A stretch of DNA of 53,717 bases from assembly GCA_963575745.1 (NCBI GenBank), contig CAUYUJ010000293.1, positions 62,001 through 115,717 on the forward strand. The letters are read 5' to 3'. Positions 40,576 through 44,720 of the stretch are shown here, in pieces. The notes below the pieces were generated by a model. It was given only the letters and a program-made list of their open reading frames with translations, did no database searches and was not told the origin of the DNA. Origin of the DNA: Prorocentrum cordatum. Lineage: Eukaryota. Made by a program: the position numbers and the translations under genes. Each line of letters begins with the position of its first letter. The stretch's first letter is position 1.

Positions 40576-42683
40576 TCCCTGCAGGAGCGCTTCCAGCACG
40601 CGTTCACGCGGGCCTGCACGCGTGCAGACACGCGTGGAAGCGTGCCTGGCAGCACTTCAGAAGCGCTTCAGGAGAGCCCCCAGAGCATTTCCGGAAAGTA
40701 CCTCGTAGAGCTCTTCGGCATCGATGAGCTGGAGGAATTCCGGCGCGGGGTGGAGCTAGTTGGCCCACCCGGCCCGGGCGGGCAATGTGATGACCTGGCG
40801 TCGGTTTTTTCAAGATTGAGAGAGATTTGAAAATTCGTTTTGGGAACCACTGTTTTTGTAACGTGAACTGTTAAAAAAAACGTGGAGGAACCGTCTGCGG
40901 TCGGGGTGTACTTCCCAAAGTGAGAATAGTCTCGTGCATTTGACAGGATAGAAGCAAGCTGCGCAACTGTAGTGTTCTCTGCACGTGTAGTAGGTGATTG
41001 CGCGTCGATCTGTTCAACTCTGCGGTCTTTAGCTGATATATCCGTAATAGAAATGCGGAATCAGTGAAATTTTGTTCGAATTATTTTTGAGTTTATATTG
41101 GCTTGATTTCTTCTCGGCATTTCAAGAATATCTTGTGAGTCCAGAGCTCTACAAGGGTCCCGGCGGTAACCTGGTTGACGGTTAACCGCCGGCTTCCAGT
41201 TCTCCGGGTCCTGGAGCGCCTCTTACCTCGTAGAGCTCTTGGGCATCGAGGAGCTAGAGGAATTCCGGCGCGGCGTGCAGCTAGCTAGTAACTCGTAGAG
41301 CTTCCTTCAGCTAGTTGCTGGAAGCTTAAGAGAAATTCCGGCGCGCTTGAGAGCTAGCAAGAAAAATATCGACGGACTTTTTTCCGAGTTTTGCTTGGTT
41401 GAAAATTATGTTCTCGAAATTCAACAATTCGTTTGAGCTCTAGTACTTTTTCCCGTGATATTCGGTCTGATTCCCGCTCGCCGTCTTAATCTCAGCTCGA
41501 TCGGGGACCTATTACTGCCAGAAAGCGTTGCGACGTGGTCGGCTGTTTCAAGTCATCTTGACAGGTGCTGTCGGTTTTCTGTATTTTTCTCGATCTGTAG
41601 GGAAGCTACAGAGCTGGTACGCACACGTAATCGATTCAGAATCATCGGGCGCGTTCGTCTGAAGCATCTAGAGGTCTGAACTCGGTCTGCTACTCGAGCT
41701 AGGTCCGCGAAACTATTCGTATTCTTCGAGTTCTCTTGACAGGTGCTGTCGGTTTTCTGTACTTAACTCGAGCTGTAGGATAGCTACAGAGCTGGTACGC
41801 ACACGTAATCGATTCAGAATCATCAGTCGCGTCCGCCTGAAGCATCCCGAGAACTGAACTCGGTCTGCTACTGGAGCTAGGTCCGCGAAACTATTCGTAT
41901 TCTTCGAGTCATCTTGACAGACGCTGTCGGATTTCTGTACTTAACTCGAGCTGTAGGATAGCGACAGAGCTGGCACGCACACGTAATCGATTCAGAATCA
42001 TCAGGCGCGTTCGGCTGAAGCATCTAGAACTCTGAACTCAGTCTGCTACTCGAGCTAGGTCAGCAAAACTATTCGTATTCGACAGATTTTTTCGAAATGA
42101 CGGTGCATTTCTTAAACTCAGCTGCAGATGAGCTTGAGAGTTCTTCGGCTGAGAAGTCAGAAGAAAATGATCAGGCTCGCTAGTCTGAAGTATCGAGACG
42201 CTTGGCTTGGGTCTGTTATGAGCGCAGACGCCGAACAACTAGTCATACTCTGCTTTTTTTTCTGGTGATGGAATTGGTTTTCTTGACTGAACTCGAGGTG
42301 CAGATGAGCTTCAGAGCTCTTAGGCACAGCAATGGGAAGATAATCGTCATGCGCGCTATTCGAAAGTATCTAGACACCTGAGCTCAGTCTGCTATTAGCG
42401 CTAGGGCTGAACACTTATTCGTACTCTGCTACTCTGCTACTTTCTTGGAAATGGTATTGTTTTCTTGGTTTTACTCGTGCTGCAGATGAGCTACAGAGCT
42501 GTTCAGCACAGCAATGGGAAGGGAATCGTCGGGCGGTAGTGACATGTATCTAGACGCCTGAGATCAGTCTGCTATCAGCGCTCGGGCTGAAAAACTATAG
42601 GTTCTCTACAAATTCTTTGGAGATAATATATTGCAAGGAAGCTCTACGAGTGTCCCGGCGGTAACCAAGGTTACCAAGGTGTC

Positions 42684-42704
42684 CCGTAGCCATTCTGGCT
42701 CAAG
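42684..42704 (+). other. Dinoflagellate spliced leader (DinoSL) exon, retro-inserted
   Basis: CCGTAGCCATTCTGGCTCAAG versus DinoSL (D)CCGTAGCCATTTTGGCTCAAG: 20/21. It is not followed by a GT donor or SL intron, so it is not an SL RNA gene. Confidence 0.92.
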
Positions 42705-43113
42705 AGTTCTACGAGGGTCCCGGCGGTAACTTGGTTGCAGCAGAGTTTACCTCCTGCTCAGCCAGGCCTCACCGCTGGGGTCCCCCTCGTCTCGAGCTGC
42801 ATTGTGCAGTAAGGAGTCTTTGGTTCCTCATACTGTACGCGGTGCTGCAGTGTCTGTTTTGCCTGAGTACCGTACACGTTCATTGATTGTCGGAGTGCGC
42901 ATTGACTGTTCAGTTTGTCGGAGTACCGTACGCTTTCATTGAGTGTCGAAGGCCTGTGCACATTCTTCGTCGTCGGATTACACATTGACGATCCAGATCG
43001 TCGGAGTACCGTTTACATTCATTGAGCTCTACAAGTATCGTACTCAACTGTCCATCTTGTATTGCCTGTGATTTGCCTTCTTCTTGTTGAGCGAATCCAC
43101 GTTTTATATATAT

Positions 43114-44277
43114 ATGGAGTTTGTTTCATCTGAATTGTCAGGCACGGATTTTGTTGCTTCAGATTGGACAGATACGGCGTTGTTTACTTCCGAGTTTCTC
43201 GCTGCTCGTTTGTCTACGCTCGAAGTGTGTGTTAGTGATCTATATTGCCGTGTTCGCCCTTCGTACGGAGGTGAGTCCCGCCTGCATGAGGGAGACCAGC
43301 TGTATGGGCATGGTGACAAAGTTTCTCAATCGAAATTGCGCCGCCTGCGGGCGAAACGTACCAGGTATCGTTTGTGGTCCACGGCTCGGGGGCCAGATTC
43401 GTCGTGCCTTGTTCGCGCGGGTATTTGCGCGCCGAGATATTATCGGAATTTCTTCTCGGACGATGCTGAGGAAGAGGAATGGGTTGAGCACCTTTGTGGA
43501 ACACAGACTGATATGGATGCTGTTGAATTGGCTGGCAACTCTTTGCGTTCGCAGTGTTCCGATTGTGGGGCTCAGACAGATCCCTGGGTTCACATTGCGT
43601 GTGGGACTCAGACTGATCGTTGTGTTCTCTTTGTTGGTGAGGAGGAGAAGGAGGAGTGTCATCGAGTGCGCGTTGATCGGGGTGATGCCTCTCTCAGAAT
43701 GAAGAGATATTGTTTCAAACGAGCGGAGACTATCGAGAGTTCAAAGTTGCGCACTTCAGAATGGCATGCGACCAACGGGAGTGCGGTGGAGAGTACCGCT
43801 GTTTGGAGTTCAGTTGATGCAGTCGGGAGTTCCAGTGCAGTCGGGAGTTCAACAGTTCGGAGTGCAGTAGGAAGTTCCACAGTTCGGAGTTCCGCTGATG
43901 CAGTTGTTGATGCAGTTGGGAGTTTAACAGCTGGGAGTTCTGCAGTTGGGAGTACCGCGGTTTGGAGTTCAGCTGATGCAGTAGGGAGTTCCATGAATGG
44001 GAGTTCTGCAGATCGACCAAGTGAGACACGCTCTGAGTGTCAAGCTGCCAGGGGCTGGGCCCTTGTCGGTGTCGATGTAAGTGCTCTTTGGCGTGAGCTA
44101 CACCGGCTCCCGAGACAGGAGCTTCAACGTAGGATTGAGGCTCTTAATGCATACAGGCTGCAAATGGGAATTGGAAGTTCCGAGGAGGAGGATTCGCAAC
44201 AGGGGGGTCCTCAGAGTTCTACTTCCAGGAGTGCATTGACGCGGAGCGGCAAGAAGCATCGGAAACGGCACAGATGA
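43114..44277 (+). CDS. Hypothetical 387-aa retroposon-borne protein (3x CG[TA]QTD, Ser/Ala/Val/Gly repeats, basic C-terminus)
   Basis: Single long ORF, sense to the SL and A-tail, flanked by UTR-like segments. ATG at 43114. No RT or nuclease motifs recognised. Confidence 0.6.
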   Translation: MEFVSSELSGTDFVASDWTDTALFTSEFLAARLSTLEVCVSDLYCRVRPSYGGESRLHEGDQLYGHGDKVSQSKLRRLRAKRTRYRLWSTARGPDSSCLVRAGICAPRYYRNFFSDDAEEEEWVEHLCGTQTDMDAVELAGNSLRSQCSDCGAQTDPWVHIACGTQTDRCVLFVGEEEKEECHRVRVDRGDASLRMKRYCFKRAETIESSKLRTSEWHATNGSAVESTAVWSSVDAVGSSSAVGSSTVRSAVGSSTVRSSADAVVDAVGSLTAGSSAVGSTAVWSSADAVGSSMNGSSADRPSETRSECQAARGWALVGVDVSALWRELHRLPRQELQRRIEALNAYRLQMGIGSSEEEDSQQGGPQSSTSRSALTRSGKKHRKRHR

Positions 44278-44470
44278 CATATTCATTGCTTGTCGGTGCA
44301 CAGTACACTTTCATTGACTGTCGGAGGATACGTCCGTTGACTGTTGGAGTACGCATTCATTGATTGTCGGAGTACACATTCATTGACTGTTGGAGTATGC
44401 ATTCATTGATTGTTGGAGGTCCATGACTATTGGAACATACACTCATTGATTGATAATTGATAATTCATTG
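44278..44470 (+). repeat. ~22-bp tandem repeats in the 3' UTR of insertion 3
   Basis: ATTCATTGA[CT]TGT[CT]GGAGTA units; related copies in the 5' UTR at ~42878-43030. Confidence 0.8.
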
Positions 44471-44720
44471 CATGGGGTCTTACCTGTGATAATTGTTAAT
44501 TTCATTGCATGAGGTCTAACTTCAACTGCATTGATGCTCTCTCTCGTTGCTCTTCGCTTCATTTGTAGCGGCGACGTGAGGCGTAGTAGATACTTCAAGA
44601 GTATCACGTTTTTCAGGGTACATCCAGCCCACAGGGGATCCCGACCGCCCTTGTAGGGCCCCGTGGTCGGACCGCAAACCGCAAAAAAACCAAGGTTGAC
44701 GGTTTACCGCCGGCGCCCAG

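Follow-up and report, generated by a model that had tools for sequence, protein, structure and literature searches.

A probable retrocopy of a leader-capped mRNA at a LINE landing bond in a Helentron-like hairpin of Prorocentrum cordatum

Leader-tagged retrogenes, site-specific LINEs and the insert e1

In dinoflagellates, retrogenes have been described that carry a relict of the dinoflagellate spliced leader (DinoSL): a DNA-encoded leader directly upstream of an intact gene marks that gene as the copy of a mature trans-spliced mRNA (Song et al. 2017, PMC5585692, where Slamovits and Keeling 2008 are cited on such retrogenes; PMC12014239). In both sources the agent of reverse transcription is stated to be unknown, the first adding that "direct evidence is still lacking" (PMC5585692); the second (PMC12014239) also mentions processed pseudogenes and retrogenes made in trans by long interspersed nuclear element 1 (LINE-1 or L1). 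Here we describe an insert of about 2 kb, labelled e1 (42673-44687/9), in a stretch of 53,717 nucleotides of Prorocentrum cordatum DNA (contig CAUYUJ010000293.1, positions 62,001 to 115,717), which we call the window and to which all coordinates refer. With a probability of about 0.7, e1 is a processed retrocopy of a DinoSL-trans-spliced, A-tailed mRNA, made by a LINE that is specific for the loop of the 3' hairpins of Helentron-like elements; the copied RNA would have begun at the AG that stands before a complete 3' end of the hairpin family B.

LINE-1 copies cellular mRNA by target-primed reverse transcription, which results in an A-tail and a target duplication. Both are present in e1; however, L1 targets are loose, whereas the target of e1 is one bond of a hairpin loop and its tail has only 7 A. 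Target-specific elements without long terminal repeats are also known, namely R2 in the 28S rDNA, Tx1L in the DNA transposon Tx1D, and NeSL, SLACS and CZAR in spliced-leader genes. The hairpin LINE resembles all of these in inserting repeatedly at one nucleotide of a multicopy target, and resembles Tx1L also in that this target is another transposon. It differs in that the target is the loop of a rolling-circle-type 3' hairpin, and a further trait of R2, the co-transcription of target sequence at the 5' end of the RNA, is unsupported in e1. As in the DinoSL-relict retrogenes outlined in PMC5585692, the leader of e1 lies directly upstream of an intact-gene copy, but e1 shows in addition both ends, the tail, the duplication and a landing bond that is also used by a LINE. 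While leader-tagged retrogenes and site-specific LINEs are known, a leader-capped retrocopy at a LINE-specific site is new. The literature search returned no report of a LINE or retrocopy with a Helitron-type hairpin as its target and none linking dinoflagellate Helitrons with the spliced leader; in the main texts of the P. cordatum genome paper and of a 2024 review, the word "Helitron" is found 0 times.

Anatomy of e1 and the bond it shares with a LINE

The insert e1 lies in the loop of a C-type Helentron-like 3' hairpin, with copies of AACCAAGGTT on both sides (Table 1). Three intact C-type hairpins of the window (~36440-36493, 40523-40575 and, on the minus strand, 17183-17130) represent empty sites and read GGTAACCAAGGT[C/T]GACGG or, in a longer form, GGTAACCAAGGT[C/T]GACGGTTTACC. 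Since they are uninterrupted, the insert and its duplication are real. The flanks of e1 agree with these sites: in a BLAST comparison within the window, the left flank (42601-42671) has 93% identity with 36398-36468, and the right flank (44688-44721) has 97% identity with 36460-36493 and 97-100% with four other right halves. For the body of the insert (42737-44687), the window contains just one copy.

The copied unit carries a DNA-encoded DinoSL at its 5' end. Compared with the canonical leader as given in PMC5585692, its 21-mer has one mismatch and is the sole match of the window at up to 3 mismatches, while 0 of 100 shuffles gave any. The letter before the 21-mer is a C, with GT ahead of it, so that the 5' end of the leader is slightly non-canonical. 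With this leader, the A-tail, the target-site duplication and the three empty sites, e1 has the marks of a DinoSL-relict retrocopy. The pieces that a sequence-only reading of the stretch had listed (target, extra ACCAAGGT, DinoSL at 20/21, B left half, open reading frame (ORF), A-tail, duplication and the remainder of the C hairpin) are all found where it had placed them, and its proposal that a DinoSL-capped RNA was retroposed into a C-type loop is supported by the leader, the tail, the duplication and the intact empty sites. The 3' stem-loop that it had also listed does not stand out from shuffled sequences, 36 of 200 of which fold as well (z-score -0.86). A scan of 42400-44900 against Rfam gave no match at E up to 1, and a search of viral contigs with the leader-arm junction pattern gave 0 stretches.

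The position of e1 is not unique to it. The loop bond after GGTT is interrupted in 3 of 35 genomic left halves (6410, 10304 and 42642), which correspond to e2, e3 and e1, e2 and e3 being the two other A-tailed loop inserts of the window; the target duplication of e2 has decayed. The frame of e3 encodes 54 amino acids that are 87% identical to the C-terminus of the protein P0022. An exhaustive search brought up 119 relatives of P0022, including proteins with lengths of 1455, 1306 and 1299 amino acids that have the P0022 domain at the C-terminus. In the middle of such proteins lies RVT_1, which passes the Pfam cut-off in P0024 and P0031 and narrowly misses it in P0064 (25.3 versus 29.6 bits). 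Because the P0022-like domain is C-terminal in RVT_1-bearing proteins, e3 is the 5'-truncated end of a LINE, of which the last 227 bp are present in the window; an element encoding a reverse transcriptase has thus reached the loop site. The LINE protein had no relative in the PDB by sequence. Since two more A-tailed inserts occupy the same loop position as e1, and one of them is a LINE 3' end, we regard e1 as a processed retrocopy at a LINE-specific target. From the duplications we infer that both strands are cut 3' of GGTT, at positions 9-10 bp apart, which would generate the duplication AACCAAGGTT.

A fourth case of insertion at this bond of the same kind of target comes from a metagenome scan, which gave one relative (contig L001) among 157 candidate stretches. 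In L001, a LINE 3' end with its tail (1-199) ends in CCTGGTT and is followed directly by a second element (200-2309), which is a case of stacking at a site regenerated by the duplication.

The best relatives of the e1 ORF are Prorocentrum cordatum records, with 93% identity over the full 387 amino acids. The family comprises 20 proteins at E up to 0.01, all of them P. cordatum records, one MMETSP transcript product or environmental contigs; it is a multi-copy gene family known only from Prorocentrum. The ORF matched 0 Pfam families and had no usable match in the ESM Atlas. The family is expressed, as seen in the MMETSP product and in contigs of two sequencing runs, X10 (polyA RNA) and X6 (probable RNA), that are at least 90% alike over 42738-44691. 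In the same two runs, loose ends at 42831 reveal paralogues whose 5' leaders differ upstream of this position. Related repeats of 23-28 nt are placed on both sides of the ORF (42865-43030 and 44302-44419).

Table 1. Features of e1 and of the two other loop inserts (window coordinates; UTR, untranslated region)
Feature	Coordinates	Strand	Remarks
C-type Helentron-like 3' subterminal repeat: left hairpin arm and left loop part	42640..42672	+	sequence comparison
Left target duplication copy, AACCAAGGTT	42663-42672	+	last 10 nt of the C-type left half
Extra ACCAAGGT, partial third target copy	42673..42680	+	missing from intact C-type hairpins
DinoSL relic: GTC, then 21-mer (20/21)	42681..42704	+	21-mer at 42684-42704
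Complete diverged B-type Helentron-like 3' end within the retrocopied RNA	42705..42765	+	
Parts of the B-type end	42705-42736; 42737-42744; 42745-42765	+	left half (AGTTCTACGAGGGTCCCGGCGGTAACTTGGTT); enlarged loop; right arm and terminus
Stretch like an inverted left half or 5' subterminal repeat	42769..42798	+	96-nt palindrome with 42705-42736
~28-nt repeats in the 5' UTR	42865..43030	+	akin to the 3' UTR repeats
Intact ORF, 387 amino acids	43114..44277	+	no Pfam family
23-nt repeats in the 3' UTR	44302..44419	+	
3' end CGCAAACCGC, then A7	44673..44689	+	A run 44683-44689
Right target duplication copy, (AA)CCAAGGTT, then C-type right arm and terminus	44688..44721	+	duplication copy 44688-44697; arm and terminus 44698-44721
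e3: 5'-truncated LINE 3' end, A10 tail, duplication (AA)CCTGGTT	10334..10560	+	B-type hairpin loop, GGTT bond
e2: older ORF-less insert, A-rich tail	6440..7687	+	A-type hairpin, GGTT bond; right half resumes at 7688

The family-B 3' end, the leader junction and competing explanations

The leader of e1 ends exactly at the start of a B-type repeat. The sequence-only reading had taken this B piece for a left half only, and had placed the donor inside a family-B hairpin. The first of these does not hold and the second is not supported, as the left half is followed by a B-type right arm and terminus. Aligned to intact right halves, 42737-42772 reads GTTTACCTCCTGCTCAGCCAG versus GTTTACCGCCGGCTC--CCAG and agrees at 17 of 19 aligned positions. 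The match takes in the TTT bulge, which is found in right arms only, and the CTC, which is found in B-type termini only, and with two B copies as reference, 0 and 1 of 2000 shuffles scored as high. The scores are highest for the B type, followed by the C and D types and then by the A type. The carried hairpin therefore has all its parts: the left half, a loop 5 nt longer than usual, the right arm GTTTACCTCCTG and the terminus CTCAGCCAG, with two mismatches in the stem; BLAST alignments of e1 to intact B copies extend through 42759. When the same right-arm test was applied to the starts of e2, e3 and the L001 element, it gave noise (139-498 of 500 shuffles reached the scores). From the presence of a B right arm and terminus after a B left half, it follows that the RNA held a whole, somewhat diverged B-type 3' end.

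As the hairpin in the RNA is complete, two successive insertions, which had been proposed for this locus, are not shown by the e1 copy, and the 5' UTR records the sequence upstream of the donor gene instead of an earlier hairpin insertion. For the same reason, the idea that the target acts as both landing site and 5' processing signal is unsupported by this copy: in an R2-like case the 5' end of the RNA would be target sequence stopping at the bond, but here the hairpin goes on past it. In this sense, e1 is less than the self-recording system first proposed.

We consider it unlikely that the donor had been inserted after GGTT in a family-B hairpin, was read through and trans-spliced at the AG of its host, and was then retroposed into the family-C site, the locus recording two loop insertions in succession. 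The B left half does stop at GGTT, where e1, e2, e3 and the L001 element are all inserted, and the loop is longer than in intact B copies by the 5 nt mentioned. Moreover, contigs of a DNA run (X5) contain a joint from 42672 to 42740, with GG between and a depth of 27.3, in which a C-like left half is followed by the same downstream sequence. This joint shows that the odd right half follows other left halves too, which fits a hairpin subfamily as well as an inserted element. Against a donor in the loop stand the match of 42745-42765 to the B-type right arm and terminus, with its bulge and its CTC, and the lack of any such match at the other three insert starts; neither a leader relic nor a truncation mark is present after GGTT.

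The region that follows has a further inverted symmetry. The whole of 42705-42800 forms an imperfect palindrome of 96 nt, with a minimum free energy of -59 kcal/mol versus -40.5 kcal/mol for shuffles (z -5.4, 0 of 200 as good); the match of 42769-42798 to an inverted A-type left half was reached by 15 of 1000 shuffles. A module of ~25 nt at the start of e2 (6455-6478) recurs inverted in the 5' UTR of e1 (42761-42785; 2 of 1000 shuffles reach the score) and looks like the left arm of a hairpin. The leaders of e2 and of the L001 element were also compared with a decayed left half plus leader, and this was rejected, 291 and 799 of 1000 shuffles, respectively, reaching the score.

Regarding the origin of the leader, AG followed by AGCTCTACGAG is present in 8 of 11 B-type copies of the window, while A-type copies have GG and C- and D-type copies GA at this position; the leader is joined just where family-B copies have the AG, as had been noticed before. 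A clean junction of leader and exon at a family-specific AG is what would be expected from trans-splicing, and, as far as these sequences indicate, trans-splicing at the AG before the B-type repeat is supported as the probable origin of the junction. The part of the earlier proposal that has to be given up is that this AG belonged to a hairpin interrupted by the donor. Use of the acceptor would yield transcripts with DinoSL joined to AG[CT]TCTACGAGG. It should be noted that contig depth is 0 over 42560-42737 in X6 and X10, in which the body of e1 is covered; we do not count this against the splice because contigs show presence only. A low depth of run X1 on the hairpin arm is uninformative, since these hairpins are so abundant in DNA (depth 24,000-296,000 in X5).

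For the mRNA retrocopy that we favour, the following course may be envisaged. A gene of the e1 family would be located downstream of a B-type element. A transcript begun upstream would receive the leader at the AG ahead of the 3' repeat and would then be A-tailed, and the source RNA would pass through the whole family-B 3' end (repeat, hairpin and terminus) before the gene. The hairpin-specific LINE would nick a C-type loop, prime on the A-tail and copy the RNA up to its capped end by target-primed reverse transcription, and an irregular closure of the 5' junction would leave ACCAAGGT and one or two extra letters. The donor locus would hold a genomic AG and then AGTTCTACGAGG...GGTTGCAGCAGAGTTTACCTCCTGCTCAGCCAG, contiguous with the gene and free of a leader.

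Several points weigh against this course of events. The match of the LINE to an endonuclease is weak (Exo_endo_phos in P0024, E 0.05, 13.8 bits, below the cut-off), and we infer the donor arrangement from the e1 copy itself. The leader junction is that of the assembly, because no listed run contig spans 42672/42673 and none of the runs contains half of the sampled words (the best reaches 0.41). The same two facts would be expected of an assembly artefact, or of a cDNA joined to genomic sequence; this is highly improbable, given that a duplication around leader and tail in one otherwise colinear hairpin is unlike a misjoin and that two further inserts have the same geometry.

Another point is the extra ACCAAGGT, which would be accounted for if the leader relic were one generation older, that is, if an earlier leader-first copy had been present in another C-type loop and an RNA beginning in the ACCAAGGT of that loop had been copied here. 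The extra 8 nt are exact C-type loop-left sequence, placed as expected upstream of a leader-first insert, and the leader has its mismatch and its odd 5' end, yet the duplication is perfect. However, partial duplication of the target at the 5' junction is an equally good explanation, and irregular junctions of this kind have been described for R2 and L1. An older leader seems to us improbable.

The last points concern the tail, which in e1 has only 7 A though the duplication is perfect. Instead of a plain A run, it has CGCAAA, a few letters and CAAAA (44673-44689), a motif that recurs in e2 (7670-7687) and in the LINE tail of L001 (176-192); loose contig ends of X6 and X10 at 44685 likewise show a tail of the CGCAAA type ahead of a hairpin right half. 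The strict pattern occurs once in the window against a shuffle mean of 0.28, and the spacing is wider in e2 and L001, so this is a weak test. The motif may serve for 3' recognition by one LINE subfamily. Because it is short and carries a recurring motif, the tail of e1 would be more in keeping with a dedicated partner element than with a random mRNA.

It is possible, though less likely than a retrocopied mRNA, that e1 is a dedicated non-autonomous, ORF-bearing retroposon whose 3' end is common with the hairpin-specific LINE, its leader-capped copy being an unusual full-length product. In addition to the tail, three related units are found at loop sites: the second element of L001 pairs a leader 86% like that of e2 (143 nt) with an ORF start 89.5% like that of e1 (373 nt), although only the first ~130 residues of its ORF are in common with the e1 ORF. 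In contigs of X5 (DNA) and X10 (RNA), 42893 is followed after 7 letters by 44355, and therefore ORF-less forms exist; the repeat arrays on both sides of the ORF also suit a dedicated unit. On the other side, e1 and e2 have no common BLAST match, nor do the 3' end of e1 and the LINE end e3, the 5' leaders of the paralogues differ, and the ORF has no retroelement domain; the tail motif itself is short. In sum, the short tail, the common tail motif, the ORF-less forms and the three related loop units favour a dedicated LINE passenger, and the lack of conserved ends counts against it.

Host elements, their surroundings and implications

The hairpins that receive these inserts follow the motif AGCTCTACGAG..TCCCGGCGGT.AC, loop, GGTT.ACCGCCGG, of which there are dozens of copies in the window (34 matches to one 23-mer pattern; 36 left halves by regular expression). 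The 3' termini of the elements lie ~8 nt past the right arm and read ..CCAGT followed by T, with ..AGTT in 23 of 26 matched termini. New units start with ACCTCGTAGAGCTCTTCGG, the core of which is the reverse complement of the 3' repeat. In our own reading of the free 5' repeats, TA precedes 18 of 21. At 9258, a free 5' subterminal repeat has an A run ahead of it in place of TA (..GGGCAAAAAAA, then CCTCGTAGAGCTC).

According to Thomas et al. 2014 (PMC4067079), Helentrons and their non-autonomous counterparts, the HINEs, insert at TT, contain tandem repeats, and have subterminal inverted repeats of 12-15 bp as well as a palindrome that lies 8-35 bp from the 3' end. The elements of the window resemble them: 12-nt subterminal inverted repeats are present near both ends, with AGCTCTACGAGG ~56 nt before the 3' end and the complementary CCTCGTAGAGCT 1-2 nt inside the 5' end. 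A palindrome with a 12-bp stem lies at a distance of 8-9 nt from the 3' end, and the elements, apparently flanked by T on both sides, are arranged in tandem and nested arrays. Folded as DNA and compared with shuffles, a B copy gave z -3.6 and an A copy z -2.8; a mutated C copy gave z 0.14. In contrast to Helentrons and HINEs, no Rep, helicase or endonuclease gene was found among the ORFs scanned (0 of 30 matched these families, out of 156 window ORFs of at least 110 amino acids), and for this reason the name "Helentron-like" is based on anatomy alone.

Short repeat units form a mosaic over about two-thirds of the window. Within it, a GC-rich block (19-36 kb) contains a duplication of ~5.86 kb and two tandem genes with trypsin, PT-repeat and CUB domains (24908-27367 and 30746-33223). 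A run of 75 T (11778-11852) lies inside a unit of a 178-bp repeat family, with no hairpin adjoining; further units of this family are at 15178, 18114, 39374, 41547 and 49533. There is also a tandem array of ~15 copies of a 90-bp unit at 12530-13893 (GC 59-65%), and long CA-rich simple repeats extend over 51033-53446, near the end of the window.

Gene copies derived from leader-capped mRNAs abound in dinoflagellate genomes, and e1 provides direct, if single-case, evidence for a site-specific LINE as a maker of such copies. To judge from the junction described above, a Helentron-like element may also supply the splice acceptor for the mRNA of a neighbouring gene. A simple genome-wide measure follows from this, namely the count of DinoSL relics beside GGTT in hairpin loops. 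The family-B AG lies 32 nt upstream of the LINE landing bond, and one could go further and propose that the hairpin elements are a ready-made expression site, in which copies that land in or behind them are read through, receive the leader at the family-B AG and are copied again. We regard this extension as rather doubtful; if it were true, much of the turnover of retrogenes in this dinoflagellate would be driven by one LINE lineage together with one abundant element of the rolling-circle type.

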